A stretch of 64,000 nucleotides of DNA from positions 1,463,276 through 1,527,275 of the forward strand of contig OZ242168.1 in the NCBI GenBank assembly GCA_965205275.1. Direction: 5' to 3'. Of this stretch, positions 1 through 25,335 are shown in pieces; the stretch's first letter is position 1, and every line of letters begins with the position of its first letter. Made by a program: the position numbers and the translations under genes. Below the pieces are notes generated by a model, which was given only the letters and a program-made list of their open reading frames with translations, was not told the DNA's origin and searched no databases. Origin of the DNA: Gammaproteobacteria bacterium (GTDB taxonomy: Bacteria; Pseudomonadota; Gammaproteobacteria; UBA4575).

Positions 1-104
1 AGGTGAATACCTGTGATTGGCAAAAAACATGAGCCTTGGCGGATGGTCGAAATGACCATCCGCCAGACACAGAGAGATTAATTCGCTAAGGAATTCTTAC
101 TGAC

Positions 105-293
105 TTAGTGGCAAGGAAAAGCCTGGGAATGGCGAATATCATGGGCCGCATTGTGCACCGCAGCCGAATTCGCAAAACCCACACCAAACAGGATCACGGC
201 CCCCAACAAAAAAGCAGCGGCAATCTGCAAAGGCCGCCATGTCGTTGTCTTCGAAATCGTTGCATCACGCACGATTGCTGTCTGATTTTGCAT
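105..293 (-). CDS. cbtB: CbtB-like small membrane protein (cobalt transporter subunit B), paralog of 12183..12380
   Basis: 62 aa with one hydrophobic helix. The C-terminal His-rich tail VHNAAHDIRHSQAFPCH is nearly identical to the tail of ORF 12183..12380 (VHNAAHDLRHGLAFPCH), which directly precedes a CbtA-like gene. This is the last gene of the minus-strand scn/ABC cluster; any partner cbtA would lie beyond the window start. Confidence 0.55.
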   Translation of the reverse strand: MQNQTAIVRDATISKTTTWRPLQIAAAFLLGAVILFGVGFANSAAVHNAAHDIRHSQAFPCH

Positions 294-350
294 AGTTATA
301 TCTCCTCCGATTAATTAAAACTTCTAATACGCTGTAAATTCATCCGGTAC

Positions 351-1205
351 TCATCCTGAGTGGTGCCAGCTGTAACGCCGAATCAGCATCGCGCAGGAAC
401 TGTCAAGGATGTAGCCCATCACCCCAATGGTAAGTACCATTGCAGTGAGATGGTCATAGGAAAGCGTCTCCCTGGCATCCGCAATGGAATAGCCCAGTCC
501 GGAAGTCACCCCCAGAAATTCTGCCGGTACCAGCACGATCCATCCGACACCCAAAGCGAGTCGAACGCCGGTCAGAATATCGAACATGATCGCCGGCAGG
601 ATAATCTGCGTCACCATATGCCAGGGCTTGGCGCCAAGGTTGCGGGCAACCTTGAACCAGGCCGGGTCCACTTTGGCCAGGCCTGCGGCCGTTGCAAACA
701 CCACCGGCCAGACCGCGGCAATCGAGATGAGAAATACAATCGCTCCGTTCCATGTGGCAAACACAATCACCGCAATGGGCTCCCAGGAGAGTGGGCTGAT
801 CATCCGTACCAACTGAAACGGTGAGTTGCTCAACTCGCGAAAGAGCTTGCTACGGCCAAGCAGGATACCGATGGGCACACCGACGATAATCGCAATGAAA
901 AGCCCGGCGCCCAGACGGTAACCACTGGTCGTGACGGCCGCTTGGATCTTGCCCTGTGCAAACAGGTGTGGAAACGCTTGAAACGTCGGGATCGGCCCGA
1001 AGTCTTTAAAGTTTGTCGTATCGGGGTTGATCTCAATGAGATACCCCCCAAACCACCAAAGCACGAACAGGATCGCAAGACCGGCGCACCAGTTGAACAG
1101 ACTCTTGCCCATCGACTTTACGATGGCTGTGTTCTGTTGCGCAGTCCTTATAGGTGGTGCCGCAGCATCTGCACCTATATCGACCAGTTTATCTCCATTG
1201 CTCAA
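351..1205 (-). CDS. ABC transporter permease, NitT/TauT (nitrate/sulfonate/cyanate/bicarbonate) family
   Basis: 284 aa multi-pass membrane protein with NitT/TauT-type permease architecture. It overlaps the stop of the upstream binding-protein gene by 4 bp. Confidence 0.8.
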   Translation of the reverse strand: MSNGDKLVDIGADAAAPPIRTAQQNTAIVKSMGKSLFNWCAGLAILFVLWWFGGYLIEINPDTTNFKDFGPIPTFQAFPHLFAQGKIQAAVTTSGYRLGAGLFIAIIVGVPIGILLGRSKLFRELSNSPFQLVRMISPLSWEPIAVIVFATWNGAIVFLISIAAVWPVVFATAAGLAKVDPAWFKVARNLGAKPWHMVTQIILPAIMFDILTGVRLALGVGWIVLVPAEFLGVTSGLGYSIADARETLSYDHLTAMVLTIGVMGYILDSSCAMLIRRYSWHHSG

Positions 1206-2491
1206 AGTTCGAACACCTCCGTACGGATATATGGATCGCCTTCTGTCGGTACGCTTGCGTCATTCCTCCACTTGGGATTGGCTTCCAGCGCCGCTTTTAC
1301 GTAGTCGTAATTGACAAGGTCATCGGCCACGTGCTCAGGGGTCAGGGTGTCAAGGAATCTCGCATCCCCCGTGACAACCGTTTCTTTCAGGTCGCTGACA
1401 ACGAGTTCTGTCGCAGACCGGTAGGGCCAGGCCTGGAAGTCAATACGGTTCTGGTTCCACTCCGGATGCTTGATCGCCAGCGGATTCTTGTAGTAGGCCG
1501 GGTCGTAGAACATCATGGCCCGTTTCACAACCTCTTTCGGGACCGGCAGGTAGCCCTTGCCGTCACGCGAAAGCACTTCTGCCATCTCCTCCCGGTTCTC
1601 GGCGAGATGAATCTGCGCTCGGACCACAGCGTTATGCACCCCTTGTGCCCAGGCGGCACGATCGGGATCCATGGCGTCTTCTTCATGCATCACCACCACG
1701 CAGCATGGGTGTCCTTTCCAGGCATCCCCTGTAAAGCGCAGCACCTTTCCACCGGCCTTGAGTTCGCCCAGCGCGTTAAACGGTTCGGCTACACAATAGC
1801 CGTCAATCGTTCCTGCTGCGAGCGCAGGCGGCATGGAAGGCGGCGCCAGAACGAGGTAGTTACACTCATCCGGTGCCAGTTTTGCAGACTGCGGCTTGAT
1901 TACCGGTTTGATGCCGGCGGCCTTCATGATCCTTTGCGAGACAATGTTGTGGATCGAGTACCAGTACGGTACGGCAAACTGCTTGCCGCCGAAGTCCTTG
2001 GGTTCATTGATGCCACTCTTCTTGCCGACCAGTACCGCCGAACCGTTGGTATGGTCCCAGGCCGTGACCTTGATGGGATACTTGTTGTTGTAGCGCATCC
2101 ACACCGGAATCGGAATCAGCATGTGTGTCAGGTTGAACCGATGCGCTGCGAAGGCCTCCACCAGTGGCGACCAGCCACGAATAAGTGTCGGCTTCACGGA
2201 ATCGATGCCTTCATCCTTGAAGTACCCCTGGTCATGCGCGATCAGCAGGGCCGCCGCATCGGTGATGGGGATATAGCCGATCTTGATCACCGGATCCCAT
2301 TTTCTCTTGGCCAAGGCAGGCATCGGCAAGGCACTTGCTCCGCCGAGGGCAGCAAGTCCCCCTACCTGGAGCAATTCACGCCGGTTGATACCGGTCCCCA
2401 GTACCCCCTTGAACAGCGGGTCATATTCTATGGCAAGCTTGGGATCATCCTGCTGTATCCCGTCGCCATGTTTCTCGTAGATTTTCTTCAT
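1202..2491 (-). CDS. Periplasmic substrate-binding protein, NrtA/CmpA/CynA-like (NitT/TauT family) with twin-arginine signal
   Basis: 429 aa. The N-terminus has the Tat motif RRELLQVGGLAALGGASALPMPALA. Size and position between ATPase and permease are typical of nitrate/cyanate/bicarbonate-type binding proteins. Confidence 0.7.
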   Translation of the reverse strand: MKKIYEKHGDGIQQDDPKLAIEYDPLFKGVLGTGINRRELLQVGGLAALGGASALPMPALAKRKWDPVIKIGYIPITDAAALLIAHDQGYFKDEGIDSVKPTLIRGWSPLVEAFAAHRFNLTHMLIPIPVWMRYNNKYPIKVTAWDHTNGSAVLVGKKSGINEPKDFGGKQFAVPYWYSIHNIVSQRIMKAAGIKPVIKPQSAKLAPDECNYLVLAPPSMPPALAAGTIDGYCVAEPFNALGELKAGGKVLRFTGDAWKGHPCCVVVMHEEDAMDPDRAAWAQGVHNAVVRAQIHLAENREEMAEVLSRDGKGYLPVPKEVVKRAMMFYDPAYYKNPLAIKHPEWNQNRIDFQAWPYRSATELVVSDLKETVVTGDARFLDTLTPEHVADDLVNYDYVKAALEANPKWRNDASVPTEGDPYIRTEVFEL

Positions 2492-2557
2492 GTCGGAATT
2501 CCTCTCATCGTTACTCTCATGGTTAATAGGATCTGAAGTGCACTTTCAGACATTATT

Positions 2558-3391
2558 TCAACTGCCGACCAGTTCGGCATTCGATGCAGCATCACTGTCT
2601 ATTTCCGTATCGGGACTGTCGTCGTCCGACACGCCTGCCGCATCGTGGAAAATTTGCATCAGGCTGGTACGCATCGCCTGAACCTTAGGATCCTGTCTTT
2701 CACGCGGATCGTCAAGGTCCACCTTGAAGTCATGTACAATCTTGCCCGGTGACCCGGCCATCACCAGGGCACGATCGGCCATGATGACCGCTTCGTCAAT
2801 GTCGTGGGTGACCATGACCAGATTGAAACCCAGCTGCTTCGAAATGGCCCGGACATCTTTTTGCAGGGTGGCGCGGGTAAAGGCGTCCAGCGCCGAAAAA
2901 GGTTCATCCAGAAGCAACAGATCGGGCTCCATCACCAGAGAACGCGCAAGCGCGACGCGCTGCTGCTGTCCACCCGAAAGGTCTTGTGTATTGTTCTTTG
3001 CAAATTCGTCAAGATGCACCAGATTGACCACCTCGGTAACCCGTTCCTTGATTTTATGGCGAGGCCAGTGGGCAAAACGCAAACCGGTACCGACATTTTG
3101 CTCAACCGTCATCCAGGGAAAGAGATGCGGCGCCTGGAACATCATGACCCATCGCGACGAGGGTTCCGTAACATCTTTTTCATTGAGACGGACAATGCCG
3201 CTCGTTTTATCCAGCAAACCGGCCAGGATATGCAGAAGGGTCGATTTGCCACATCCGGACCGCCCGATAATAACCAGCGCTTCCCTGGATTGGGCCTCGA
3301 TATTGACGTTCTCAAAAGTAACGGGACTCTTCGCCGTATAACGGTGCGTAAGATCCTCGATCCTGATGTGTACGCCTGTACGTTCTTCCAT
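2558..3391 (-). CDS. ABC transporter ATP-binding protein (NitT/TauT family)
   Basis: Walker A GRSGCGKSTL, ABC signature LSGGQQQRVALARSL and Walker B LLLLDEPFSALD are all present. Confidence 0.9.
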   Translation of the reverse strand: MEERTGVHIRIEDLTHRYTAKSPVTFENVNIEAQSREALVIIGRSGCGKSTLLHILAGLLDKTSGIVRLNEKDVTEPSSRWVMMFQAPHLFPWMTVEQNVGTGLRFAHWPRHKIKERVTEVVNLVHLDEFAKNNTQDLSGGQQQRVALARSLVMEPDLLLLDEPFSALDAFTRATLQKDVRAISKQLGFNLVMVTHDIDEAVIMADRALVMAGSPGKIVHDFKVDLDDPRERQDPKVQAMRTSLMQIFHDAAGVSDDDSPDTEIDSDAASNAELVGS

Positions 3392-3528
3392 ATGTGTTCC
3401 CTGCTTCTGTGCCGGTCTTTACGTACTGTAAATCGACGTTTCATTCGCTTTACATACCCTTGCAGGCACTAAAATCCAAGCTAAAACCGAGCCCGTTTCA
3501 TTTGGGTTCAACTCCTCATTTCATGCTG

Positions 3529-3891
3529 TCATTCCGCGATAATCTTGTCTGACCACTCCACGTCCTCGACAAAAGTGTCAGGGTTGCCAGGCTGTGCACC
3601 GGCTTTCGCCATATCCTCTTCACTCACCCCTCGAGCCCTTGAGCACGCGCCACAGCATTCTATCCGGACCCCGTTGCCGATCGCCTCGTCCCATTGTTCG
3701 GCCACGGATGGCCAGCCAAGGGGCACCATGTTTTCACGCACGACGGGCCGCGCCAGACACACGGCTTCTCCAAGCAGGAAAATCCGAACCTCATGGCCTG
3801 CACTGGCCAGCGCGTTCGAATGTCCAAACACCATGGCCGCCCGTGTCGGGTCGTCGCTTCCCCATGAAGACTTCATGAATATATTTGCCAT
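3529..3891 (-). CDS. DsrE/DsrF-like (TusD/YchN fold) sulfur-relay family protein
   Basis: 120 aa. The N-terminal segment fits the DsrE/YchN pattern (FMKSSWGSDDPTRAAMVFGHSNALASAGHEVRIFLLGEAV). It has the conserved Cys region IECCGACSRARGV and a C-terminal ...DKIIAE. Confidence 0.5.
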   Translation of the reverse strand: MANIFMKSSWGSDDPTRAAMVFGHSNALASAGHEVRIFLLGEAVCLARPVVRENMVPLGWPSVAEQWDEAIGNGVRIECCGACSRARGVSEEDMAKAGAQPGNPDTFVEDVEWSDKIIAE

Positions 3892-3974
3892 AAACTTAAT
3901 TATTCCTTACTTTTACGTTTTTCTGTCACACTTTTTCATCAACAATACGCTGACTCCGGGAAGCATACACTCCG

Positions 3975-4382
3975 TCAGACGCGATTGAGGCGTTCGTCGA
4001 CATACTTCATGCGAAGCGCCAGTTCATCTTCATCAATCAGGCCGCGCCGGATCATCGAATGGGCAAGGGCCAGGAGCTGGCGCTCCGGATACGGAACATC
4101 CTGGTACAGCGTCTCGGAGAGCTCATCTTCCTCATTGCGGCGTTCCAGCACAGGAAGCGCACAGTTTTCAGCGGAAAGCGCCTCACAGGTCGAGTCCAGG
4201 TTAAGCTTCCATGGGGGATCGGGGTTTTCCACCCCGTATTGCCTGGCCAGGTCCTCCCATGCTCTTCCTTGCCTGCGAATCTTCTCGAGCAGTGAAATCG
4301 AAGAAAATTCCGATTGCGGGTCGGTCAAACCGGCTTCGGAAGCTTTTTTCTCCGGGGCAGCCATCGCGTTCCTAGTGACCAT
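3975..4382 (-). CDS. Nitrile hydratase / thiocyanate hydrolase accessory (activator, NhlE/P15K-like) protein
   Basis: 135 aa acidic protein immediately downstream of the gamma (NHase-alpha-like) subunit, overlapping it by 11 bp. Size and position match the self-subunit-swapping activators of Co-type NHase/SCNase. The homology is inferred, not confirmed. Confidence 0.4.
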   Translation of the reverse strand: MVTRNAMAAPEKKASEAGLTDPQSEFSSISLLEKIRRQGRAWEDLARQYGVENPDPPWKLNLDSTCEALSAENCALPVLERRNEEDELSETLYQDVPYPERQLLALAHSMIRRGLIDEDELALRMKYVDERLNRV

Positions 4383-5064
4383 GAACCGGGTTGGCCGCCT
4401 TGTGTACGGGCCGCTTGTCGTCTGCCTTGCGGTCCGGGTGCGGCAGGGCTACGCCCAGCATACAGTCACGCGTTACAATTTCGGCGAGCTGATCCTCGCT
4501 CCAGCCTTCCGTGCCTTCGGGGCGCATCGGCATGACCATGAAACGGCACTTCTGGTTCGAGTCCTCAACCCGGACTTCTGTATCGGCAGGCACCTGCAGA
4601 CCAAACTCTGCCAGCACCTGGCGTGGCCATCGGACCAGTCGGCGTCGATAATTCGGAGTCCGGTACCACTCGGGGGAATGACCCAGAATGGGCCTGGGGT
4701 AACACGAGCACAGCGTACACACCACCACATGATGCACGGACGGGGTGTTTTCAAGGACGCGTAAATCGCAATAATCACTTGGCGTTCCGAATCCTGTCGG
4801 GTTCAGCCAGTCGACCCCCACTTCCTTGCTGGCCGCGAAGCCATCCTCCAGGGCACGTTTCTTGAATTCGGGATCGAGCCAGGACTTGGCAACCAGTCGT
4901 GCCGCCGGCAGCGGTCCTATGCTATGTGCAAATTCCGCAAAGCGTCGATGATCTTCGGCACTGAAAAGGCCTTTCTCAATCGCCAGCTCACGAACAGCCA
5001 CTTCCAGAACTTCGAAGTCGCTGACCTCATCCACCATGGGTGCGGCTTTATGTTTCTCTGCCAT
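4372..5064 (-). CDS. scnC: Thiocyanate hydrolase gamma subunit (Co-type nitrile hydratase alpha-like), metal-binding VCTLCSC motif
   Basis: 230 aa carrying the motif HVVVCTLCSCYPRPILG (the Co-type C-T-L-C-S-C claw), then SPEWYRTPNYRRRLVRWPRQVLAEFG. It follows two separate beta-half genes, as in SCNase. Confidence 0.75.
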   Translation of the reverse strand: MAEKHKAAPMVDEVSDFEVLEVAVRELAIEKGLFSAEDHRRFAEFAHSIGPLPAARLVAKSWLDPEFKKRALEDGFAASKEVGVDWLNPTGFGTPSDYCDLRVLENTPSVHHVVVCTLCSCYPRPILGHSPEWYRTPNYRRRLVRWPRQVLAEFGLQVPADTEVRVEDSNQKCRFMVMPMRPEGTEGWSEDQLAEIVTRDCMLGVALPHPDRKADDKRPVHKAANPVHGH

Positions 5065-5110
5065 AATTCTTTCCTCTCTATTCGGTTCGCTTTATCCGTT
5101 CCGGTCCGGG

Positions 5111-5485
5111 TTACGCCGACTCCAGCCAGCGTTCGGAAAACTCTGTCTGCAAGGTATCGTTCGCATAGGCATCCGGATATCCGGACCAGAGATCCTTCTG
5201 CCTGAAACGCACAATGTAGAACCACTCGGGATCGTCAACGTTATCCCAGGCCTCGTCCTCAGGGGCGGGGCTTTCATGCGTCACCGCGGCCACGACACCC
5301 TCCGCACCCCGTGTATACACCTGACACCGGGTGTAGAAGATATCCGGCAAATCCTGGATGCGCACGCGATCACCGACGTTGAATTTGGGCGGGCCGGCTT
5401 CGCCTTGGAAACATTGGGGGTCGCCTTTCCCCGTAGCTTTTTCGGCGTGATGACTTCTACTCATGGCGCTTCTTGACCTCATCAA
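5111..5485 (-). CDS. scnA: Thiocyanate hydrolase alpha subunit (corresponds to the C-terminal half of nitrile hydratase beta)
   Basis: 124 aa with an NHase-beta C-terminal-like segment (VGDRVRIQDL...YTRGAEGVVAAV...PEWFYIVRF). It lies between the beta and gamma genes. The alternative identity is a split NHase beta. Confidence 0.65.
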   Translation of the reverse strand: MMRSRSAMSRSHHAEKATGKGDPQCFQGEAGPPKFNVGDRVRIQDLPDIFYTRCQVYTRGAEGVVAAVTHESPAPEDEAWDNVDDPEWFYIVRFRQKDLWSGYPDAYANDTLQTEFSERWLESA

Positions 5486-5930
5486 TCTTGTTCATCAGTT
5501 CGGTGAGCGTAACGTGTTGCTTGTCTACCATGATGCGTGCAGCAGAAAGCAGCCAGCGCCCATAGTAGGGCAAGCCCAGGTACTGGGTCTGGCCCAGGTC
5601 AACGTTCTGCCGGCGACGTCTTTCCTCGGCATTCCAAACCCCGCGCCACGCCAGGCATTCACAGGTTACGTAGGTATTCAATTCCCACTGCTCTTCCTCT
5701 TTTTCATGCCATTGAATGGAGACGTCGGGTTCGCCACCGACATCATGCGAAGTGCGCATATAGGCCCTGAAATGAGCGTTATCAACCTCAGTGGGAAGTG
5801 GTGCATGCTGCGGTTGATGCAAAGCCGGTTGCAGTTGACCGACAATGTCAATATGCCGCATCACCTTCTGTCTCGTATCGGATGACATAGCGTTGATCTC
5901 CTCCTTACTTCCTACATATATGGATGTCAA
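5457..5930 (-). CDS. scnB: Thiocyanate hydrolase beta subunit (corresponds to the N-terminal half of nitrile hydratase beta)
   Basis: 157 aa, the size reported for ScnB, with NHase-beta N-terminal-like motifs (HDVGGEPDV...WELNTYVTCECLAWRGVWNAEERRR...LGLPYYGRWLL). It is the first gene of the minus-strand operon and overlaps scnA by 29 bp in another frame. Confidence 0.65.
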   Translation of the reverse strand: MTSIYVGSKEEINAMSSDTRQKVMRHIDIVGQLQPALHQPQHAPLPTEVDNAHFRAYMRTSHDVGGEPDVSIQWHEKEEEQWELNTYVTCECLAWRGVWNAEERRRRQNVDLGQTQYLGLPYYGRWLLSAARIMVDKQHVTLTELMNKIDEVKKRHE

Positions 5931-6081
5931 ACAAGTTGCCTTGTAAGCCAGATAATTCGGGTATTTTAGAATTTACTTATTTACTTATTTTATAGCATAT
6001 TCACTTTAGATAATGACAAGTCTAAAGGAGTTGTGTTATTAATCCAAGACTTTATATTTATCAAACCTATAAGAGTTGACT

Positions 6082-7014
6082 ATGGACCGAAGGGACATTT
6101 TCCCGCGTTCCCTCCAGTACCTGATCGCCATCGCAGAGTATGGCAGCTATACGCGCGCGGCTGAAGCCTTGCATGTCTCACAGCCCACTTTGTCGCAACA
6201 AATCAAACAACTGGAAAGTTACCTGCAATCCCCCTTGCTGGACCGGTCCGGACGACATGTGCAGCTCACCGACGCCGGCAAGATATATGTGCGCCATGCC
6301 CGTCGCGCCTGGGGGGAATTGAGCACCGGTACGCGGGCCATCCACGATGTACAGAACCTGAGTCGCGGTTCATTGCGCCTGGGATGGACACCGATTACCG
6401 ACTATCTGACCTGCTCCCTGCTGGCCTGCTACAACAGCCAATATCCCGGTATTACCCTGAGTACGCTGGATATGCCCCAGGACGACATTGAATCCGCCAT
6501 ATCCGAAGCCCGCATTGATATCGGCATTACCTTCAGCAAACCCACCGACCCCGAGGATGTATCGGGCAATACCGAAACGTTCACGCTGTTTGAAGAAGCC
6601 CTGCACCTGGCCGTCGGCAACGCACACCCGCGTGCCAAACGGCATAAGCGGATCAGTGTCCAGGATTTTGGCAAGGAATCCCTGGTACAGCTCAATACGG
6701 ACTTCGCGCTGCGCCGTCACATCGACCGCTATTGTCATGATCACGGCATCGAACCCTATAATGCAATCGAAACCAATTCTCTTACCGTGATCATAGAAAT
6801 GGTGGAACACGGCCCACTGGCCACCGTGCTGCCCAGTACCATTATCAATGCGCAGAGCGGGCTTCATCCAATCGAGGTATTACCGGAACTTCCCCATCAC
6901 ACCGTCAGCCTGGTCTGGCATAAAGGCGGTTACAAAAGTCCGGCATGCCAGGCCTTTCTGGAGATGGCATCGGACTGGGCCGCGCGCATGTGCCAGAAAA
7001 AACAGGCACCGTGA
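6082..7014 (+). CDS. LysR-family transcriptional regulator (CynR-like position, divergent from the scn operon, upstream of cynS)
   Basis: N-terminal HTH (LQYLIAIAEYGSYTRAAEALHVSQPTLSQQIKQLE) followed by a LysR substrate-binding domain. The ATG at 6082 is preferred over the TTG at 6076. Confidence 0.85.
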   Translation: MDRRDIFPRSLQYLIAIAEYGSYTRAAEALHVSQPTLSQQIKQLESYLQSPLLDRSGRHVQLTDAGKIYVRHARRAWGELSTGTRAIHDVQNLSRGSLRLGWTPITDYLTCSLLACYNSQYPGITLSTLDMPQDDIESAISEARIDIGITFSKPTDPEDVSGNTETFTLFEEALHLAVGNAHPRAKRHKRISVQDFGKESLVQLNTDFALRRHIDRYCHDHGIEPYNAIETNSLTVIIEMVEHGPLATVLPSTIINAQSGLHPIEVLPELPHHTVSLVWHKGGYKSPACQAFLEMASDWAARMCQKKQAP

Positions 7015-7254: not shown

Positions 7255-7695
7255 GTGACCAAAGAAGAAATGACGGACTGCATCATTGCGTCCAAAAAAG
7301 CAAAAGGATTGACCTGGAAAGCTATTGCCAGCAAGCTGGGCATGCACGAGACTTGGGTGACTTCCGCATGCCTTGGAATGAACAGCATGCCTGAAAAGGA
7401 AGCCAGTATCTTGTGTGAAGCCCTCGAACTGGACGAAAGCACATGCGCAGCCCTGAAAGAGTATCCCGATAAATCATGGGAGAAGACCATTCCACAGGAC
7501 CCGGTGACCTACCGGCTGTACGAAATTGTCGGCGTATACGGCAATACGATCAAGGAACTCATCCATGAAAAGTTCGGCGACGGGATCATGAGCGCGATCG
7601 ATTTTTCAATGAACATCGAGAAGGAAGAGAACCCGAAAGGAGACCGGGTTGTAATCACACTGAACGGTAAATTCCTGAAATATACCGCATGGTAA
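7255..7695 (+). CDS. cynS: Cyanase (cyanate hydratase/lyase)
   Basis: 146 aa. The C-terminal half closely matches the CynS catalytic domain (YRLYEIVGVYGNTIKELIHEKFGDGIMSAIDFSMNIEKEENPKGDRVVITLNGKFL). A GTG start with a GGGGAA ribosome-binding site precedes it. Confidence 0.9.
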   Translation: MTKEEMTDCIIASKKAKGLTWKAIASKLGMHETWVTSACLGMNSMPEKEASILCEALELDESTCAALKEYPDKSWEKTIPQDPVTYRLYEIVGVYGNTIKELIHEKFGDGIMSAIDFSMNIEKEENPKGDRVVITLNGKFLKYTAW

Positions 7696-8642: not shown

Positions 8643-9659
8643 TCATGTGCGGTCCAGACCGGGCGGGTCCAGGGCATATTCGAATGAATCATAGTACAAC
8701 GCATCGCCCGCCAGCCCATGTTGCGGAAAAGAGGTCCGGATGGCGGCAATCATCTCCGGCGGACCGCTGGCATACACCTGCACCTGCGACAGGTCCGGGT
8801 GGTCGGCCAGCACCGCTTCGTGCACCGGCCCGCACCGGCCTTCCCAGTCCGGATCCGGCCTGGATAATACGGGCGTGAAGCCAACGCCCAGTTCCCGTTC
8901 CCAGACGGCTATCTGCTCATGGCGGTACAGGTCCCGCCGTGCGCGTACGCCCCAGTAAAACTTCACAGGTCTTCGCACCCCGCGCACGCACAGGTCATCG
9001 AGCATGGCCGCAATCGGGGCAAAACCCGTACCGCCCCCCACAAGGATCGCCGGGCGCGGATCCTCCCGCAGGAAAAAAGTCCCCAGAGGGCCCATTACAT
9101 GCAGCAGGTCCTGTTCCTGGATCGCACTGAGTTCATGCTCACTGAACCGGCCGCCGGGAACCCGGCGTACGTGCAACTCGATCGATTCGGTGTGGTCAGG
9201 CGTACTTGCAATCGAGTAACTGCGACGACGGTTGTCCCACAACAAAAGATCGACATGTTGTCCGGCAAGAAAATGCAGGGTGCCGCGCCCTTTCTCCAGG
9301 CCGAGCGTGATCGCGGTGACGTCGTGGCTGAGCGGTTCCAGGCGCTGCACCCGGCAGGCCAGGGTACTCACCTCAAACCCGGCCATGGCTTCAATTTCCC
9401 GGGCCTCGATGACCAGATCGGAACGCGCGAGCGCCTGGCACAGCAGGATGGCACCGCGCGCACAGGTGCCCAGTACCTCTTCCGGTGCCGCACCCGGGGA
9501 AATTTCGCCGGATACCAGACGGGCGCGACATATCCCGCAGTTCCCGCTGCGACAGCTGTACGGGAACACAAGCCCCTCGCGAAGCGCAGCCGCCAACACC
9601 GTCTCTCCCTCCCGGCTCGTAACCTCGCGCCCGCTGGGCTGAAAACGAATACGTGTCAT
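8643..9659 (-). CDS. 2Fe-2S ferredoxin / FAD-NAD(P)H oxidoreductase fusion (FNR-like reductase)
   Basis: N-terminal plant-type ferredoxin cysteines (CRSGNCGICRARL...C), the FAD motif RRSYSIAS and an NAD(P)-binding GGGTGFAP. The start was moved to the internal ATG at 9659 (MTRIRFQP...); the ORF table extends it to 9728. Confidence 0.75.
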   Translation of the reverse strand: MTRIRFQPSGREVTSREGETVLAAALREGLVFPYSCRSGNCGICRARLVSGEISPGAAPEEVLGTCARGAILLCQALARSDLVIEAREIEAMAGFEVSTLACRVQRLEPLSHDVTAITLGLEKGRGTLHFLAGQHVDLLLWDNRRRSYSIASTPDHTESIELHVRRVPGGRFSEHELSAIQEQDLLHVMGPLGTFFLREDPRPAILVGGGTGFAPIAAMLDDLCVRGVRRPVKFYWGVRARRDLYRHEQIAVWERELGVGFTPVLSRPDPDWEGRCGPVHEAVLADHPDLSQVQVYASGPPEMIAAIRTSFPQHGLAGDALYYDSFEYALDPPGLDRT

Positions 9660-9828
9660 AAGTAACTGCCTATTGTCTACAATCTTGCAGGCACATGGAA
9701 GCCGGTCCCGGGCCTGACGCTCCCGCACTCACAGGGTGTACGTGATCTCGATCAGGCCGTTTTACCGTTCTGTACCATTTGGTATATACTGTACTGATCG
9801 GTAAAACCTACAACAAGGAGCTGCAGCC

Positions 9829-10296
9829 ATGTCCGAACGACCCCCATTCCCCCCTTTTACCCGTGAGGGTGCCATACAAAAAGTCCAGATGGCCGAAAAT
9901 GCATGGAACTCGTGCAACCCGGAGAAAATCGCGCTGGCGTACAGCGAAGACAGCCGCTGGCGTAACCGGGCCGAGTTCTTCGAGGGCCGTGAAGCGATCG
10001 TCACCTTTCTTACGCGCAAGTGGGCACGTGAACTGGATTATCACCTGATCAAGGAACTCTGGGCATTTCATGACGACCGCATCGCCGTGCGTTTTCAATA
10101 CGAATGGCATGACGATTCCGGCAACTGGTTTCGTGCACACGGCAACGAAAACTGGGAATTTGACGAACGGGGTTTGATGCGCCGGCGCGAGGCCAGTATC
10201 AACGACGTTCCGATTGAGGAATCCGAGCGGAAATTCCTGTGGGAACAGGGACCGCGTCCAGGTGATTATCCCGGACTGACCGAACTGGGCCTTTAG
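9829..10296 (+). CDS. DUF1348 family protein (NTF2-like fold)
   Basis: 155 aa with the characteristic DUF1348 run [12 protein letters not shown]...[39 protein letters not shown]...[27 protein letters not shown]. Confidence 0.7.
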
Positions 10297-10299
10297 TTC

Positions 10300-10872
10300 A
10301 TGTCCCGGAAAATCGCGGAACGCCGGGACGCGATTCCGGCACTCGGGGAAATTTTCAGGGAGCACGGCTTCTCAGGCAGCTCGCTCACAGAAATTACACA
10401 ACGAACCGGCCTCGGCAAGGGCAGCCTGTATCATTTCTTTCCCGATGGCAAAAAAGAGATGGCCGAGGCCGTGCTGGATGATGTGACGGCCTGGTTCGAG
10501 ACCCATGTGTTTTCAGCTTTGCGCGACAGTAAAGACCCTGGGTCCGGCATCCGGGATATGTTTGAGGCCGTGAACCGTTATTTCAATTCAGGTAACCGGA
10601 TCTGTCTGGTCGGCGCTTTTGCGCTGGACGATACCCGCAACCAGTTCGAGGCCCGGATCAGCGCCTATTTCAATGCCTGGATCCGGGCCCTCACCGTGGC
10701 TCTCAAACGCTCTGGCTTCGGCAAGAAAAATGCAAAAAAGACGGCGGAAGATATTGTCATCGGCATCCAGGGGGCCTTGGTGCTGGCGCGGTCACAACAG
10801 GACCCGCAGGTGTTCACCCGGGCCTTGAAGCGACTGCAACAACGCATTACAGCAGGCCCTTTCAAATCATGA
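10300..10872 (+). CDS. TetR/AcrR-family transcriptional regulator
   Basis: N-terminal TetR HTH (GFSGSSLTEITQRTGLGKGSLYHFFPDGKKEMAEAVL). It starts 4 nt after the DUF1348 stop. Confidence 0.85.
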   Translation: MSRKIAERRDAIPALGEIFREHGFSGSSLTEITQRTGLGKGSLYHFFPDGKKEMAEAVLDDVTAWFETHVFSALRDSKDPGSGIRDMFEAVNRYFNSGNRICLVGAFALDDTRNQFEARISAYFNAWIRALTVALKRSGFGKKNAKKTAEDIVIGIQGALVLARSQQDPQVFTRALKRLQQRITAGPFKS

Positions 10873-11037
10873 AAACAGTCTCGGGATTTTCCGGGAAAAC
10901 AAAAAATCACCGGACCGGTACGTATCGGCCTTCGGATTTTGCAGGACTGCAGGAACCGCATTCCCTGCATACCCTTCACTGAACCCGATCATCCGGAAGC
11001 ACCCTTCAGGCACCCCCAAGCACGACCCTTCCAGCCT

Positions 11038-11858
11038 ATGTCCAGTGAATTACGGAATCCTCCGCACGATGTCCTGAGGTTTATTCATATCACGGATACC
11101 CATATCCTCAACCAGGCGGGCGAAACCTTTTGCGAACTCAATACCACAGAGAGTTTGCAGGCGGTTTTATCCCACTGTGCAGGGTCTTACCCGGATATCG
11201 ACTTCTGGCTGTTCACGGGTGATGTTTCGCAAACGGGGCACGGGAAAGCTATGCCTTGTTCAAGTCTGCGATCCAGCCATACGATGTGCCGGTGTACTGC
11301 GTGCCCGGGAATCATGACACACCAGAACTCTTGCAGCGTGCCGTCCCGGACTGTCCGGTTGACTCCATCCATGTGATTCAGCGGGGCCGGTTTTCGCTTG
11401 TATTGCTCAATACCTGGGTCGAGAACAGACATCACGGCAGGATTTCCCAACGGTGCCTGCGACAACTGGAGAAGCATCTGCAAGATTGCAGGGACCAGGT
11501 CAATATCATTGTCCTGCACCACCCCCCGGTGCGGGTGAACAGCGAGTGGCTGGATGAAATCGGGCTGCAAAACAGGAGCGAATTCCTGCAGGTCCTGGAT
11601 GTCTGCCCCGGAAATGCGCTGGTGCTGTTCGGACATGTTCATCAGGAAGTCGATCAGCAGTCCCGCAAGCTGCGTTTGTTATCCACGCCTTCCACCTGTT
11701 ACCAGTTCAAACCGAATACCCGCGTGCATCGCGCAGACACGCTTCCACCCGCTTACCGGTTTGTCGAACTGGACACAAGCCATCGCATGGATACAAAAGT
11801 GCATTACCTCCGGCAAGGGCTGTTTCCGGGAAAGACGGTTGAGACCGGACCGGCCTGA
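11038..11858 (+). pseudogene. cpdA: 3',5'-cyclic-nucleotide phosphodiesterase CpdA (metallophosphoesterase), interrupted by a -1 frameshift near 11242-11247
   Basis: The N-terminal part (RFIHITDTHI...LFTGDVSQTGHG) is in frame 1. It continues in another frame as ESYALFKSAIQPYDVPVYCVPGNHD...VLHHPP...GHVHQ. The junction falls in the homopolymer-rich stretch ggggcacgggaaagc. Confidence 0.7.
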
Positions 11859-12182: not shown

Positions 12183-12380
12183 ATGAATACAGTTCAGAAT
12201 ATAAAAGATCTGCCCACTCACATTCAGGCAGGCGCATTGCCCTGGGCAACCGTCCATGCTGTGACGGCGGCCATTCTGATCGGTACCCTGATCCTTGCAG
12301 CCGCGGGTTTTGCCGGACCCGAAGTCGTTCACAATGCCGCGCATGACCTGCGTCACGGTCTTGCCTTCCCTTGCCATTGA
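12183..12380 (+). CDS. cbtB: Cobalt transporter subunit CbtB
   Basis: 65 aa with one TM helix and a C-terminal His-rich tail VHNAAHDLRHGLAFPCH. It is preceded by the ribosome-binding site ggaggag and immediately followed by cbtA. Confidence 0.65.
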   Translation: MNTVQNIKDLPTHIQAGALPWATVHAVTAAILIGTLILAAAGFAGPEVVHNAAHDLRHGLAFPCH

Positions 12381-12392
12381 TACGGTGCGGTC

Positions 12393-13076
12393 GTGAAAGC
12401 CTTTAACAGGATATTGTTGACTGCCTTGCTGGCGGGCAGCATTGCGGGGTTGATTCTCGGAGGCATCCAGCAGTTCACGGTAGTCCCCAAGATCCTTGAA
12501 GCGGAGACCTATGAGACTGCCGGTGATGACGGAGAAGCCCATGGTGGCGAGACCTGGGCGCCACAAGAAGGTACGGAGAGAACCCTCTGGACGATAGTGA
12601 ACAGCATGCTGGTGGGCATAGGATTCGGCCTGCTGCTGACCGCCTGTTATGCATTGCGCAGGAAGGTTACCTGGCAACACGGCATTCTGTGGGGACTGGC
12701 GGGTTTTGCCGCATTCCATCTGGCGCCCGCACTGGGATTGCCGCCGGAACTTCCAGGAGATGCCGCAGCGGGTCTGGATCAACGGCAGGTATGGTGGCTG
12801 CTGACCGTGGCGGCGACGGCTGCCGGTCTTTGGATCATAGCCTTCCAGTCGAATGTCTACCTGAAGCTGTTCGGGGTAGCCTTGCTCGCATTGCCTCATA
12901 TATTCGGGGCGCCCCAGCCCGCGAGGCACGAAGGTCTGGCACCCGCAGAACTGAGAGAGGCCTTTGTTTTTACATCGCTGGTGACGAATGCCGTTTTCTG
13001 GGTCGCGCTCGGTGTCCTTTGTGCGCTGTTTTATAAATGGTTTGGAGATAAAGACGGAAAGCCCTGGGCTGACTGA
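12393..13076 (+). CDS. cbtA: Cobalt transporter subunit CbtA
   Basis: 227 aa with about 5 TM helices. It has an acidic/His-containing periplasmic loop (ETAGDDGEAHGGETWAPQEG) and HIFGAP/H-rich segments typical of CbtA. It is in an operon with cbtB. Confidence 0.65.
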   Translation: MKAFNRILLTALLAGSIAGLILGGIQQFTVVPKILEAETYETAGDDGEAHGGETWAPQEGTERTLWTIVNSMLVGIGFGLLLTACYALRRKVTWQHGILWGLAGFAAFHLAPALGLPPELPGDAAAGLDQRQVWWLLTVAATAAGLWIIAFQSNVYLKLFGVALLALPHIFGAPQPARHEGLAPAELREAFVFTSLVTNAVFWVALGVLCALFYKWFGDKDGKPWAD

Positions 13077-15676: not shown

Positions 15677-16288
15677 TCAGTCTAGCATCCCTTCAGAACG
15701 AATGAACCGGATGATTTCCTCCAGCCCTTCCTGCTGTTTCAGATTGGTAAATACAAAGGGCCGCGCACCGCGCATTTTCCTTGCGTCGCGCTCCATGACT
15801 TCAAGCGATGCCCCTACCATGGGGGCCAGATCCGTTTTATTGATCACCAGTAAATCGGACTTTGTGATACCCGGGCCCCCTTTGCGTGGAATCTTGTCCC
15901 CGGCGGCGACGTCGATGACGTAAATCGTCAGATCCGAAAGTTCCGGGCTGAACGTGGCACTCAGATTATCACCTCCACTTTCCACCAGTATGAAATCCAG
16001 TTCAGGAAACTCGTCACAAAGATCCTGTACGGCCGCCAGATTGATCGAGGCATCTTCACGAATGGCCGTATGCGGACATCCACCTGTCTCAACACCCTTG
16101 ATGCGGTTTTCAGGCAGTGCTCCATGTTTGATCAGAAATTCCGCATCTTCACGCGTGTAGATGTCATTCGTGACGACGCCTATCTCATACTCGCCACGCA
16201 TGGCCGTACACAATGCATTCAGCAATGCCGTTTTACCGGAGCCGACAGGACCGCCCACCCCAACCCTTAACACTTGTTTGGATGTCAT
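15677..16288 (-). CDS. ureG: Urease accessory protein UreG (GTPase)
   Basis: P-loop [10 protein letters not shown], UreG length 203 aa, located 3' of ureF. Confidence 0.95.
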
Positions 16289-16294
16289 GATGGG

Positions 16295-16981
16295 TTACGA
16301 CCTGAATAACCGTGAATACTGTGATTCGTGGTTGGCACTGGCAATACCCAGTCCCACCGCTGTGCTGCCCAGATCATCGTCCTGCAGCTGCAATCCCGTT
16401 TTGACCCGGGCCGGGATTTCATCAATCAGGGATGAGAGCATGCGCTGGCCCGCAGTCTGGCCCAGTGGAATCAGTTTAATGGCGGCATTCACCTGATTCT
16501 CGCACCAGGCCCACAGGTACCCCGTGCAGGCATCCGCTTTGCCTACCTGCCATTGTGTGGCGGCCAGTGAAAAGGCAGTGGCATAGGTCACATAGGGCGC
16601 GCCCATAATTTGTCCGGCTTGCCGGATCCCCAGGTCGGCCAGCAGTTTTGACAAGGCCTTTCCCAGATGCCGGTCTTCGCTACGCAATTCCCTGGACTCA
16701 CGGCAGGCAAGCAGGTACCGGCTCCAGTACGCCACCTTATCGGCCGAGCCGGCCTGCCAGGCATCAAACAGCCGTACCAGTAGCGGCACATCCACACAGG
16801 TTTGCGCGTTTCGCAACAACCCTGCAATCCAGTCCCGGGCACTGTCTTCATCTTTTACCCAGTCCTGATCACAGGCAAATTCCAGACCTTGCGAATAGGC
16901 AAATGCACCGATCGGCAACGACGGGCTGGTCAGTCGCATGAGATTCAGCATGGCCGTGCTGCGGGATGATTCAACGGACAT
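16295..16981 (-). CDS. ureF: Urease accessory protein UreF
   Basis: 228 aa with the UreF N-terminus LMRLTSPSLPIGAFAYSQGLE. Confidence 0.85.
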   Translation of the reverse strand: MSVESSRSTAMLNLMRLTSPSLPIGAFAYSQGLEFACDQDWVKDEDSARDWIAGLLRNAQTCVDVPLLVRLFDAWQAGSADKVAYWSRYLLACRESRELRSEDRHLGKALSKLLADLGIRQAGQIMGAPYVTYATAFSLAATQWQVGKADACTGYLWAWCENQVNAAIKLIPLGQTAGQRMLSSLIDEIPARVKTGLQLQDDDLGSTAVGLGIASANHESQYSRLFRS

Positions 16982-16983
16982 GA

Positions 16984-17451
16984 TCAGTGAGCATGCCGGT
17001 CGGCATGCGCATGGGAATGAGCCTGCTGAAGGTAGGCACCCGACTCGGGTTCAAAAGAACGCATTTCATGTGAAATGGAGAGCCCCAGGTGGCTGACCAT
17101 TTGATCCAGCACATGATCTTTCTGGTACACCAGATAGCTCTCCCCGATCTGCAAGGGCATGTGCCGGTTGCCAAGATGATAACTGGCCCGGGCCAGCAGC
17201 AACCGGTCCTCACTGCTTGCCACCGAAACCGCTTCCGCTACGGCAATGACCCGGACAATCACTTCACCGTCCTCACTTTGCAGACAGTCACCCCCTCGTA
17301 ACACCAGGCCCCGGGGTAACATCACCCCTACTTCCTCACCGCTGTCCGACCGGGTTTTGAAGCGTGCCTTTTGCCGCACCTCATACGCCAGGGTCAAGGT
17401 ATGGCTGGGATGCGATACAGGGCCTGTTATGCGCGCAGTGAGCACCAGCAT
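16984..17451 (-). CDS. ureE: Urease accessory protein UreE (nickel metallochaperone) with His-rich C-terminus
   Basis: 155 aa with the LGNRH motif and a C-terminal HSHAHADRHAH tail. Confidence 0.85.
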   Translation of the reverse strand: MLVLTARITGPVSHPSHTLTLAYEVRQKARFKTRSDSGEEVGVMLPRGLVLRGGDCLQSEDGEVIVRVIAVAEAVSVASSEDRLLLARASYHLGNRHMPLQIGESYLVYQKDHVLDQMVSHLGLSISHEMRSFEPESGAYLQQAHSHAHADRHAH

Positions 17452-17456
17452 CGGGA

Positions 17457-19160
17457 TCAGAACAAAAAGTATTTCTGTGCCATGGGAACGGTGGTGGCCG
17501 GTTCACAGGTCAGTAACTCGCCGTCGGCATGCACTTCATAGGTCTGCGGGTTGACCTCAATACGGGGTTGATACGTGTTCAGATGCAGGTCTTTTTTCCG
17601 GATCCCGCGTGTATTGCTGACCGCAACGACCGTTTTATCCAGATGCAATTGATCCTGTATACCCGCATCCAGTGCGGCTTTTGAAACAAAGGTCAGTGAG
17701 GTGGATGCGTTGGCTTTGCTTTGGGCACCAAACATATACCGGTAGTGTACAGGTTGTGGCGTAGGGATTGAGGCATTGGGATCCCCCATCGGGGCCGCAA
17801 CAATAAACCCTCCCTTGATGATCAGTGAAGGTTTCACGCCGAAAAACGGCGGCTTCCATAACACCAGGTCGGCCAGTTTGCCGACTTCAACCGATCCGAC
17901 TTCATGTGCGATGCCATGCGTAATGGCCGGGTTGATGGTGTACTTGGCAACGTAACGCCGTATCCTGAAGTTGTCGTTGCGATCACTGTCTGGTTCCAGT
18001 GCACCGCGTTGAACCTTCATTTTATGAGCCGTTTGCCAGGTCCGGGCAATGACTTCCCCGACACGCCCCATGGCCTGTGAATCCGATGCAATCATACTGA
18101 ACGCACCCAGGTCATGCAGGATGTCTTCGGCGGCAATGGTTTCCCGGCGAATGCGTGACTCGGCAAAGGCAACGTCTTCAGGAATTTTCGGGTCCAGGTG
18201 ATGACATACCATCAGCATGTCCAGATGTTCGTCAATGGTGTTCACCGTAAAAGGCCGGGTTGGATTGGTACTGGACGGCAACACGTTGGCCAGGCCGCAT
18301 ACACGAATGATATCCGGTGCATGCCCACCCCCTGCGCCTTCCGTATGATAGGTGTGTATCGTACGGTCCTTGAATGCGGCAATGGTGTCCTCAACGAAAC
18401 CGGATTCATTCAACGTATCGGTGTGAATCGCCACCTGCACGTCGTGTTGCTCAGCGACTCCCAGACAATTGTCGATGGCGGCAGGCGTTGTGCCCCAATC
18501 TTCATGCAGCTTCAGCCCCATTGCCCCGGCTTCAACCTGTTCATTCAAGGCCTCCGGCAGGCTTGCATTGCCCTTGCCCAGGAAACCCAGATTCATGGGC
18601 AGACTGTCTGCGGCTTCCAGCATACGGTGAATATTCCACGGACCCGGGGTGCAGGTGGTCGCATTGGTGCCGGTCGCAGGGCCTGTGCCTCCCCCCAGCA
18701 GGGTGGTCACCCCGGACATCAGGGCATCTTCGATCTGTTGCGGACAGATAAAGTGTATGTGTGCGTCGATCCCCCCCGCAGTCAGTATTTGTCCTTCCCC
18801 GGCAATGGCTTCGGTACCCGGACCGATCAGGATATCGACACCGGGCTGCACATCAGGATTGCCTGCTTTGCCGATGCCTGCAATCCGTCCGTCCTTGATC
18901 CCCACATCGGCTTTGGCAATTCCCCAGTAATCCACAATGAGTGCATTGGTGATGACCGTATCCACGGCTTCCCGGCAGCTCGCCTGGCTTTGCCCCATGC
19001 CATCCCGTATGACCTTGCCGCCACCGAACTTTACTTCTTCCCCGTAGATGGCAAAGTCGCTCTCAACTTCCACACGCAATTCCGTATCGGCAAGTCGCAG
19101 ACGGTCCCCGACGGTGGGGCCATACATTTCGGCATACGCCTGTCTTGAGATTTTTGCCAT
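17457..19160 (-). CDS. ureC: Urease alpha subunit
   Basis: 567 aa with the amidohydrolase active-site motifs GGIDAHIH and MVCHHLD. Confidence 0.95.
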
Positions 19161-19171
19161 GTCCGTGCAGC

Positions 19172-19821: not shown

Positions 19822-19842
19822 ATGGATTCCCGTATCCTGCTG

Positions 19843-20706: not shown

Positions 20707-20707
20707 T

Positions 20708-20926: not shown

Positions 20927-20949
20927 GATGTTGTGTCCCCCAGGTATTT

Positions 20950-21642: not shown

Positions 21643-21653
21643 GGTCCTTGCTG

Positions 21654-25220: not shown

Positions 25221-25335
25221 GGTGGATTGGCTTTACAGGGGATGCCAAGAAGCTGACCACCCTGCGGATTCAGGGTGGTCAGCCGTACCTACAAGGTTTG
25301 TTACTGAAGGCAACGGTTTAATGATGACCGGACAA

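Follow-up and report, generated by a model that had tools for sequence, protein, structure and literature searches.

A new example of the proteobacterial thiocyanate hydrolase cluster, with a candidate dedicated thiocyanate importer, in a gammaproteobacterial genome

Thiocyanate hydrolase clusters and the present locus

In Thiobacillus thioparus DSM 505 the thiocyanate hydrolase genes scnABC are followed by a gene for a hypothetical protein and by four genes for subunits of a NitT/TauT ATP-binding cassette (ABC) transporter, next to which lie a gene for a DsrE/F-like 'peroxiredoxin', a tusA-like gene and sqr, with a cyanase, a methylase and a cobalt-transporter subunit encoded upstream (Berben et al. 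2017, PMC5328954, Fig. 3). In the same work Thioalkalivibrio thiocyanodenitrificans was described as having a comparable arrangement whose cobalt uptake system is a different one, and Huddy et al. (2021, PMC8061750) also refer to 'the necessary transporters' beside the enzyme. The locus considered here lies at one end of a 64-kb stretch of a gammaproteobacterial genome (contig OZ242168.1, positions 1,463,276 to 1,527,275; the whole stretch is called the window below), in which listing of open reading frames (ORFs) and profile searches reveal nine minus-strand genes in a single row at positions 105-5930. The row encodes a predicted thiocyanate hydrolase (scnBAC), a small activator-like protein, a DsrE-fold protein, the three parts of a NitT/TauT-like importer and the cobalt-transporter subunit CbtB, and it adds a neat further case to the proteobacterial scn clusters already known, without being a new system.

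An earlier reading of this DNA from its letters (the sequence-only reading) had described a thiocyanate hydrolase operon extended by four further elements. All of the scn, DsrE-like, ABC and CbtB genes that it named were recovered by profile search on that strand and in that interval, and the four extra elements are real, but a P15K-like activator between scnC and the DsrE-like gene makes a fifth, and the transporter genes, all three of which are there, run in the order ATPase, binding protein, permease. Its remark that such a linkage is not well described does not stand, the combination of enzyme, NitT/TauT transporter, DsrE-family protein, cyanase and cobalt transporter having been published by Berben et al. 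(2017, PMC5328954). With respect to function, we put at roughly 0.6 the probability that minus-strand positions 22-6075 form one transcription unit for thiocyanate use, probably switched on by a divergent CynR-type regulator. This reading draws on observed family assignments, gene order, conservation, selection and terminator structure, and co-transcription, the inducer, every substrate and a partnership of CbtB with CbtA are its predictions. Overall, the functional proposals come out partly supported: comparison strengthens the idea of a thiocyanate importer, the idea of cobalt supply needs a remote cbtA, and the idea of a sulfur relay is weakened.

A transporter that accompanies thiocyanate hydrolase

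Thiocyanate is an anion kept out of the cell by the membrane potential, and thiocyanate hydrolase has no signal peptide, which together make a physiological argument for an importer. To place the window transporter in context, an alignment of ScnC homologues was used to fetch 80 genome loci with 10-kb flanks, onto which the window proteins were mapped. Thiocyanate-hydrolase-type ScnC was found in 12 proteobacterial loci (L001-L011 and L029; 58-96% identity to window ScnC), and in 11 of the 11 such loci with downstream sequence the genes for the activator, ATPase and binding protein come directly after scnC; L029 gave no detectable ATPase or permease matches, and the remaining proteobacterial loci fetched with ScnC keep the full transporter order of the window, the contig of L008 ending before the permease. 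A further 21 loci, mostly actinobacterial (68-77% ScnC identity), hold only scnBAC and the activator in housekeeping surroundings, and in about 50 loci of ordinary nitrile hydratase these accessory genes are all missing, except that L040 has a cbtB-like gene nearby. Checked from the transporter side, binding-protein homologues at 83%, 78% and 72% identity (L167-L169) all lie in scn clusters, as does that of L170. Window-type transporters are thus linked to scn genes in 15 of 15 cases, the examined binding-protein homologues being 67-95% identical, and the linkage preserves gene order across Gamma-, Beta- and Alphaproteobacteria. The proposal that the transporter is a candidate uptake system dedicated to the enzyme gains from this constant companionship, and a dedicated importer with thiocyanate as its candidate substrate is well supported by the comparison.

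Other transporters can occupy the position of the ABC genes. In Acidithiobacillus sp. M4-SHS-6 (L081) an FNT-family channel and a porin take it, and in a Xanthobacteraceae locus (L083) a CynABD-like system does; the cobalt position, in turn, is held by HupE/UreJ in L168 and L169 and by NiCoT/NicO in L081. Because unrelated families of anion and of cobalt transporters swap into the same cluster position, both uptake functions appear to be needed by the enzyme. The Acidithiobacillus cluster itself (L081:6013-12497, CP175559.1) is a compact acidophile arrangement of fused scnBA, scnC, activator, a DsrE-like gene (67% identity), the FNT-family channel, a porin-like protein, cyanase and NiCoT, flanked by transposase genes.

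By domain content the window importer is of NitT/TauT make-up (PF13379/PF09084, PF00528 and PF00005 on adjacent genes), and its parts score below cutoff against the NCBIfam models for specific substrates. The binding protein reaches 81.5 bits against a cutoff of 163.5 for SsuA_fam and 28.6 against 304 for the taurine model; the permease reaches 119 against 209 for NtrB and 114 against 342 for TauC, with SaoP also below its cutoff; and the ATPase reaches 192 against 292 for ntrCD and likewise falls short of the taurine and sulfonate models, PotA/PhnT-type models scoring slightly higher. Neighbours of the binding protein in the Protein Data Bank (PDB) are 3un6 (4e-19), the C-terminal regulatory domains of NrtC/CmpC (about 1e-15), NrtA (1e-11) and CmpA (1.6e-6), and pairwise alignment with the cynS-linked binding protein of L085 gives 27% identity. 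Judged by these scores the transporter is not an orthologue of NrtABCD, CmpABCD, TauABC, SsuABC or CynABD, and the label NrtA/CmpA/CynA-family that had been given to the binding protein cannot be read as orthology.

Sequence comparison instead places the binding protein in one small, discrete and highly conserved family, found only in scn clusters among the loci sampled: 98 proteins fall within E <= 1e-30 among 1.84 billion representatives, and the next full-length relatives in that collection are 35-49% identical. The motifs around W107, N149-G-S151-A, S-I-H181-N and W-K259-G-H-P-C-C, shared by the whole family, are invariant in 39 homologues. Both the window and the CynA-like binding proteins carry W...NGxA...SIHN...GHPCC motifs, with Gln in the cynS-linked type where the scn-linked type has its invariant Ser151, a difference that would fit a bulkier sulfur end of the ligand and is only a lead. 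In alignment His181 falls on the NrtC-type domain's histidine; a review (PMC8786288) gives H196 and K269 of NrtA as charge-balancing residues, numbers that are not mapped rigorously onto the window protein. Two longer proteins, P0372 and P0373 (650-690 aa), have a C-terminal domain like the binding protein (40-44% identity to the window protein), resembling the NrtC/CmpC architecture of ATPase plus regulatory domain.

The binding protein carries a candidate twin-arginine (RR) signal, NRRELLQVGGLAALGGASALPMPALA, in which R37-R38 are invariant in 39 of 39 homologues. The window motif, NRRELLQ, falls below the threshold of the twin-arginine translocation (Tat) model TIGR01409 and is weaker than the SRRDFLK of P0197, a 77%-identical orthologue that passes (21.7 bits against 16.7); P0177 comes close to passing at 14.1 bits, and a Pfam TAT_signal match is precomputed for several homologues. 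The n-regions of Tat signals are normally variable. In this family the segment before the arginines, HGDGI..DP.L...YDPLF.GVLGTG.NRR, is conserved in the 39 homologues (window 2386-2491, the first ~35 codons of the gene) and is absent from the 35-49%-identical relatives; it may be a chaperone or targeting determinant.

Gene content, transcription unit and control region

The features of the locus are collected in Table 1. The junctions between genes of the row are overlaps or gaps of 46, 83, 137, 66 and 57 bp, short enough for a single unit, as the sequence-only reading had held, and the four larger internal spacers fold like shuffled sequence (z 0.2-0.9). After cbtB stands a strong hairpin with an 11-bp GC-rich stem, GGCGGATGGTC-ATTTC-GACCATCCGCC, and a six-T run nine bases on (-31.9 kcal/mol, z -4.67, 0 of 200 shuffles); hairpins of differing sequence occur at the equivalent position in L001, L002 and L170. 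A promoter and terminator scan overlooked the window hairpin, the T-run of which starts 9 nt beyond the stem, and folding revealed it. At the other end, a block of about 64 nt in the cynR-proximal part of the control region (roughly 6010-6073), CTATAGGTTTGATAAATAYAAAGTCTTGGATTWATAACAYAACTCC...TTGYCATTA, is common to the window, L001, L002 and L170, with diverging flanks, and is a candidate for both the CynR site and the scn promoter. From these features we infer a single unit that would run from a CynR-controlled promoter in 5889-6075 to the terminator at 22-64.

L001, L002 and L170 repeat this gene order, an arrangement well outside what chance would give. Purifying selection is seen on all seven measurable genes, dN/dS against L001 being 0.017 for scnC, 0.036 for the binding protein, 0.056 for the ATPase, 0.11 for the permease, 0.16 for the activator, 0.18 for cbtB and about 0.015 for the DsrE-like gene; scnB and scnA are excluded, since codon threading failed at an in-frame stop in the L001 slice.

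Table 1. Features of the scn locus and its surroundings (window coordinates)
Feature	Position	Strand	Evidence
scnB, thiocyanate hydrolase beta	ORF 5457-5930, likely 5457..5888	-	PF21006 NHase_beta_N, 64.9 bits
scnA, thiocyanate hydrolase alpha	5111-5485	-	PF02211 NHase_beta_C, 80.5 bits
scnC, thiocyanate hydrolase gamma (catalytic, cobalt-binding)	4372-5064	-	TIGR03887
P15K-like activator, NHase-beta-N-related	3975-4382	-	PF21006, weak, 22.1 bits
DsrE/YchN-fold protein with C80-x-x-C83	3529-3891	-	PF02635, 52 bits
ABC ATPase, NitT/TauT-like	2558-3391	-	PF00005, 121 bits
Periplasmic binding protein, candidate thiocyanate binder, RR signal	1202-2491	-	PF13379 NMT1_2, 130.5 bits
ABC permease, single copy	351-1205	-	PF00528, 76.5 bits
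Solo cbtB, scn-operon-type paralogue	105-293	-	TIGR02459, 75.8 bits (cutoff 64.4); PF09489, 76.6 bits
Intrinsic-terminator-like hairpin and T-run	22-64 (hairpin 38-64, T-run 22-27)	-	Folding
AT-rich divergent control region	5889-6075	.	~64-nt conserved block
CynR-type LysR regulator, divergent from scnB	6076-7014	+	NF008416; HTH_1 and LysR_substrate
cynS, cyanase, downstream of cynR	7255-7695	+	NF002773, TIGR00673
Second cbtB and cbtA	12183-12380 and 12393-13076	+	CbtA: TIGR02458, PF09490

Three consecutive genes match PF21006, PF02211 and PF02979, the homologues of the N-terminal half of nitrile hydratase (NHase) beta, of its C-terminal half and of NHase alpha. The third, scnC, scores 397.6 bits against the thiocyanate hydrolase gamma model (cutoff 291.45) and stays below the cutoff of the nitrile hydratase alpha model (211 against 249.85), and its VCTLCSCYP metal-site motif is invariant across the ScnC homologue alignment; scnBAC is, by these assignments, a predicted thiocyanate hydrolase. 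The likely start of scnB is the ATG at 5888, with an AAGGAGG box 8 nt upstream and a product of 143 aa as in homologues, and that of scnA is at 5464, its homologues having 117-122 aa. The activator follows scnC directly in nearly all of L001-L032 with sequence past scnC, actinobacterial loci included, and by analogy with P15K of T. thioparus its role would be cobalt loading. A Hyphomicrobiales scn locus (L007:7096-7852) has an additional pair of scnA/scnB-like genes (53-57% identity) immediately upstream of its main scnBAC and in the opposite orientation.

The divergent regulator passes the CynR equivalog cutoff (351.8 bits against 277), and a divergent LysR gene is kept in L001-L004, L006, L008, L009 and L011. 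Cyanase is likewise assigned above both cutoffs (207 bits against 150 for NF002773 and 174 against 113 for TIGR00673). In the Xanthobacteraceae scn cluster (L083:3496-5034, also L084:684-2222) the divergent CynR-type regulator has 512 aa and its C-terminal domain is 66% identical to ScnB (NHase_beta_N), a fusion that might be a thiocyanate sensor.

Further into the window lie accessory and structural genes of urease together with a urea-type ABC transporter of two ATPases, permease and Peripla_BP_5 binding protein (15677-26631), and an ammonium transporter gene (58855-60120). Cyanase, urease and the urea and ammonium transporters suggest that thiocyanate serves as a source of nitrogen here. 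The closest loci come from the uncultured-bacterium genomes COS4_bin_31 and SB0662_bin_53, which we take to be sponge metagenome bins, and the neighbourhood hints at use of the enzyme for nitrogen nutrition outside the classical sulfur oxidisers. An Rfam match to 5_ureB_sRNA (99 bits, window 18725-19011, plus strand) is antisense within the urease large-subunit gene (17457-19160, minus strand) and is in all likelihood due to the conserved coding sequence and not to a genuine sRNA gene.

Cobalt genes

The cbtB gene at the end of the row belongs with other scn-linked copies: its product is 49-84% identical to CbtB of L001, L002, L170, L167, L007 and L029, and only 38% identical to that of the cbtA-adjacent copy in the same window. 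The separate cbtB-cbtA pair starts about 6 kb past scnB, and its CbtA, at 232.7 bits against a cutoff of 182.9, lies 6.5 kb beyond scnB and about 12 kb from the solo cbtB. The same separate pair is kept in L001, L002 and L170, the window lineage, in which only cbtB stands at the row end and the other pair lies beyond cynS. In L007, L009, L029 and L167, by comparison, the scn row ends in cbtB-cbtA or cbtB-cbtA-cbtB. The proposal that CbtB supplies the cobalt of the enzyme therefore holds in part: cobalt transporters of several unrelated families do recur in scn clusters, but a lone CbtB cannot do this by itself and needs a remote CbtA, presumably the one encoded beyond cynS.

Control by a cobalamin riboswitch was the basis of the original prediction of CbtAB. 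A search of window 1-24000 at the gathering threshold gave no Rfam match to a cobalamin riboswitch upstream of either cbtB, an absence in keeping with cobalt supply to a non-corrin enzyme. The stretch from cynS to the cbtB-cbtA pair (8643-11858) holds a 2Fe-2S/FAD/NAD ferredoxin-reductase-type gene and genes for a DUF1348 protein, a TetR regulator and, likewise kept between cynS and cbtB in L170, a metallophosphoesterase.

The DsrE-like protein

The DsrE-like protein is the most conserved of the window operon, with 61 synonymous and 4 non-synonymous codon differences from L001. Its AlphaFold2 model (pLDDT 92.9) has as top Foldseek matches YchN (1jx7), DsrE3A (3mc3), DsrE2B (2qs7), DsrE (2hy5_A) and TusD (2d1p_A), with E from 1e-7 to 3e-5 and TM 0.76-0.84 (names of 3mc3 and 2qs7 after PMC11094781). 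Against the PDB the single sequence gave no match, and the profile a marginal one to YchN only (E 0.74). Across 25 homologues C83 never varies and C80 hardly does, forming a C-x-x-C, and WGSD(D/N)PT, H24 and GWP are also conserved. C80 aligns with the sole Cys shared with tusA-linked DsrE-family proteins and with the first Cys of LCKTC in YchN; the conserved active-site cysteine, the loss of which the sequence-only reading had named as telling against its proposal, is thus kept. By sequence and fold the protein is best assigned to a YchN-like CxxC clade and not to DsrE/TusD orthologues: its score on the TusD/DsrE equivalog model (TIGR03012) is 19 bits, where the cutoff is 89.25, and it is about 20% identical to the DsrE-family protein whose gene, in Thiobacillus-type clusters (L167-L169), precedes tusA and an SQR-like gene.

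The slot between activator and ATPase is occupied by this gene in the window lineage only, among the loci fetched with ScnC. A cytoplasmic 120-aa branch of at least 60% identity occurs in scn clusters of Acidithiobacillus, Xanthobacteraceae, L087 and L170, and linkage of this branch to thiocyanate or cyanate genes is found in 10 of 12 informative loci outside the window lineage. In L085 (4341-8363), L090, L091, L092 and L094 the CxxC DsrE-like gene directly adjoins a cynABDS-like operon, on one side or the other, and 8-9 kb of surrounding sequence lacks thiocyanate hydrolase; L085/L086 also have soxYZ and soxA-like genes close by. In L171 (5299-7363) a homologue of 76% identity adjoins an ArsR-rhodanese regulator and a fatty-acid hydroxylase instead of an scn row, and the genome of this locus shares the housekeeping synteny of window 41.7-49.6 kb (peptidase M48, 5'-3' exonuclease, fructosamine kinase, ferrochelatase, PriA). 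A second, 150-aa branch (L095-L166, L172:7001-7456; 54-61% identity) has an N-terminal RR signal, e.g. MERRRFFLSRLAGLPLLA, is abundant in soil metagenomes among unrelated neighbours and looks like an exported paralogue. Two other accounts of the gene were considered and dropped: that it is a foreign insertion was rejected, its GC content being ordinary and its place conserved in four genomes, and a part in cobalt delivery or maturation was set aside, the clade also accompanying cyanase operons that lack a cobalt enzyme.

The one thread here that could be new is the link between the CxxC DsrE/YchN-like branch and operons for cyanase and for thiocyanate hydrolase. A hydrolytic cyanate pathway for thiocyanate was proposed decades ago, and we know of no identified enzyme for it. 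As a long shot, the 120-aa branch might be a dedicated, so far unrecognised part of cyanate and thiocyanate assimilation and not a general sulfur relay; in the boldest form of this idea, the cysteine pair would desulfurate thiocyanate, or a thiocarbamate or S-carbamoyl intermediate, to cyanate. If that were true, operons of the ABC-cynS-dsrE-like kind would be a complete route from thiocyanate to ammonia via cyanate.

The proposed route and its alternatives

In the proposed route, thiocyanate in the periplasm, barred from entry as an anion by the inside-negative membrane potential, would be captured by the RR-signal binding protein and pumped inward by the ATPase/permease pair. In the cytoplasm the three-subunit cobalt enzyme ScnBAC would convert it to ammonia and carbonyl sulfide (COS), with cobalt put into the gamma subunit by the P15K-like protein and imported by the small membrane protein CbtB together with the remote CbtA, the purpose here being nitrogen scavenging. 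The weakest step, offered with low confidence, is that of the DsrE-fold CxxC protein, whose cysteines might act on a reactive breakdown product of thiocyanate or cyanate, as a sulfide or persulfide acceptor or as a thiol-redox helper.

Several observations weigh against this reading. No such transporter was found in the actinobacterial loci L012-L032, so the importer is not universally needed; when an alternative transporter was sought in L012 and L025, only housekeeping neighbours were seen, ORF calling being unreliable in such high-GC DNA. The AlphaFold2 model of the binding protein, built with 39 homologues at 71-96% identity, was poor (pLDDT 57.5), and comments on its pocket come from pairwise alignments only. 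A scan of the control region with the sigma-70 consensus gave no credible promoter match. E. coli CynR is a sensor of cyanate, and the inducer could for that reason be cyanate. The scn-linked cbtB has no adjacent cbtA: a hairpin follows it, no ORF continues, and the gene that comes next in L001 and L170 has the opposite orientation. The DsrE-like branch also stands beside cynS and a CynABD-like transporter without thiocyanate hydrolase (L085/L086, which are one cluster, and L090-L094), and in L089 and L171 the clade is in neither a thiocyanate nor a cyanate context; nor do the ORFs annotated across the 64-kb window include DsrF/H, TusB/C, TusA, SQR, rhodanese, sox or dsr genes. Finally, the literature searched yielded no paper that tests the transporter substrate, the cobalt genes or the DsrE-family genes of scn clusters.

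As to the substrate of the transporter, the locus could be a cyanate island under CynR control that acquired thiocyanate hydrolase, with the importer, a CynABD analogue, carrying cyanate, or cyanate and thiocyanate, to cyanase. The regulator is indeed a CynR equivalog with cynS adjacent, NitT/TauT systems beside cynS do exist (L085, L086, L090-L094), the Xanthobacteraceae thiocyanate hydrolase is paired with a CynABD-like set, and the binding proteins of both types share their motifs. The window-type transporter nevertheless tracks scnBAC and not cynS, which is absent within 10 kb in L003, L007 and L009; no window-type copy was seen outside an scn cluster among the loci examined; and the cynS-linked type differs in its sequence, in its Gln for Ser151 and in its gene order (binding protein, permease, ATPase, cynS, where the window transporter begins with the ATPase). 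We regard a cyanate importer as unlikely on this balance. Transport of some unrelated small anion, such as nitrate or nitrite, bicarbonate, taurine or an alkanesulfonate, by a system that is a mere passenger in the cluster is a good deal less probable still. It has in its favour the NMT1_2 domain, the sub-threshold SsuA, TauA, NtrB and NtrCD matches, and NrtA and CmpA among the nearest solved structures, and against it that no equivalog cutoff is reached, that the order-preserving linkage with scnBAC is strict across three proteobacterial classes, and that other anion channels replace the ABC system in the same slot.

The sequence-only reading had assigned to the DsrE-like protein the handling of COS-derived sulfur, and in classical form this would be a persulfide relay passing sulfane sulfur from COS-derived sulfide to assimilation or oxidation. 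The DsrE fold, the conserved family cysteine and the very strong purifying selection are in keeping with it, as are the other scn clusters in which a different DsrE-family gene is followed by tusA and an SQR-like flavoprotein gene (also Berben et al. 2017, PMC5328954). A relay is nonetheless doubtful, though the least improbable of the alternatives weighed here: the equivalog score is far below cutoff, identity to the tusA-linked type is low, an additional invariant Cys turns the site into CxxC, and the window ORFs lack the usual partners. The clade also adjoins cyanase-ABC operons that lack thiocyanate hydrolase and so set no sulfur free, which makes a role limited to relay of COS-derived sulfur doubtful. 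The solo cbtB, for its part, might be a decaying and functionless remnant of a cbtB-cbtA(-cbtB) tail, as the complete tails of L007, L009, L029 and L167 would allow for a lineage without adjacent cbtA. This is improbable for a gene that is an intact ORF between permease and terminator in four diverged genomes (window, L001, L002 and L170), with a conserved C-terminus, HNAAHDxRHxxxFPCH, and the low dN/dS given above.

Thiocyanate is a pollutant from mining and coking and also a natural source of nitrogen and sulfur. In the literature searched we found no study showing how cells take it up, and the binding-protein family confined to scn clusters is the obvious candidate for a first thiocyanate-specific binding protein. 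The picture of the scn cluster drawn in 2017 is unchanged, and the main use of the present comparison is to point experimenters to a protein worth purifying.

Comparison with known systems

The cyanobacterial cynABDS genes form a cyanate operon with an importer of NitT/TauT type, and the likeness is that an importer of this kind for a pseudohalide anion is linked with the enzyme for its breakdown; operons in cynABDS order are present in L085, L086 and L090-L094. The window differs in the low identity of its binding protein, in its ATPase-first order and in tracking thiocyanate hydrolase and not cyanase. With cynR-cynTSX of E. coli it shares a divergent CynR-type LysR gene beside cyanase, but it lacks the carbonic anhydrase gene cynT and cynX, and the divergent operon here is that of thiocyanate hydrolase and an ABC importer. 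Some clusters of cobalt-type nitrile hydratase have a cobalt transporter of their own, nhlF in Rhodococcus rhodochrous J1 being an example, and in these, as in the window, a non-corrin cobalt enzyme of the same superfamily is encoded with an activator and a cobalt importer. The importer is CbtB/CbtA in the window and NiCoT in those clusters, although the scn cluster of Acidithiobacillus (L081) does use NiCoT.

For the DsrE-like protein, E. coli YchN, which to our knowledge has no established function, and DsrE3A are the best structural matches, the LCKTC of YchN standing in the same place as CCGAC in the window protein, whereas sequence identity to the two is only 17-18%. DsrE3A is a thiosulfonate carrier encoded with sHdr/TusA (PMC11094781), and neither sHdr nor TusA is found in the window.

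The closest systems remain the clusters of T. thioparus DSM 505 and of Tv. thiocyanodenitrificans ARhD1, with which the window has in common scnABC, a small activator-like gene, a NitT/TauT transporter, a DsrE-family gene, cyanase and a cobalt component. They have two permeases where the window has one, and their DsrE-family gene comes after the transporter, whereas that of the window, of the CxxC subfamily and about 20% identical, lies between activator and ATPase. The window has neither tusA nor sqr, its operon ends in a solo cbtB as the cobalt component, and its neighbourhood is one of nitrogen scavenging, not of sulfur oxidation. Set against these known clusters, the present one is thus marked by small variations, namely one permease only, cbtB on its own, and a DsrE-fold gene of another subfamily that sits in a new place.

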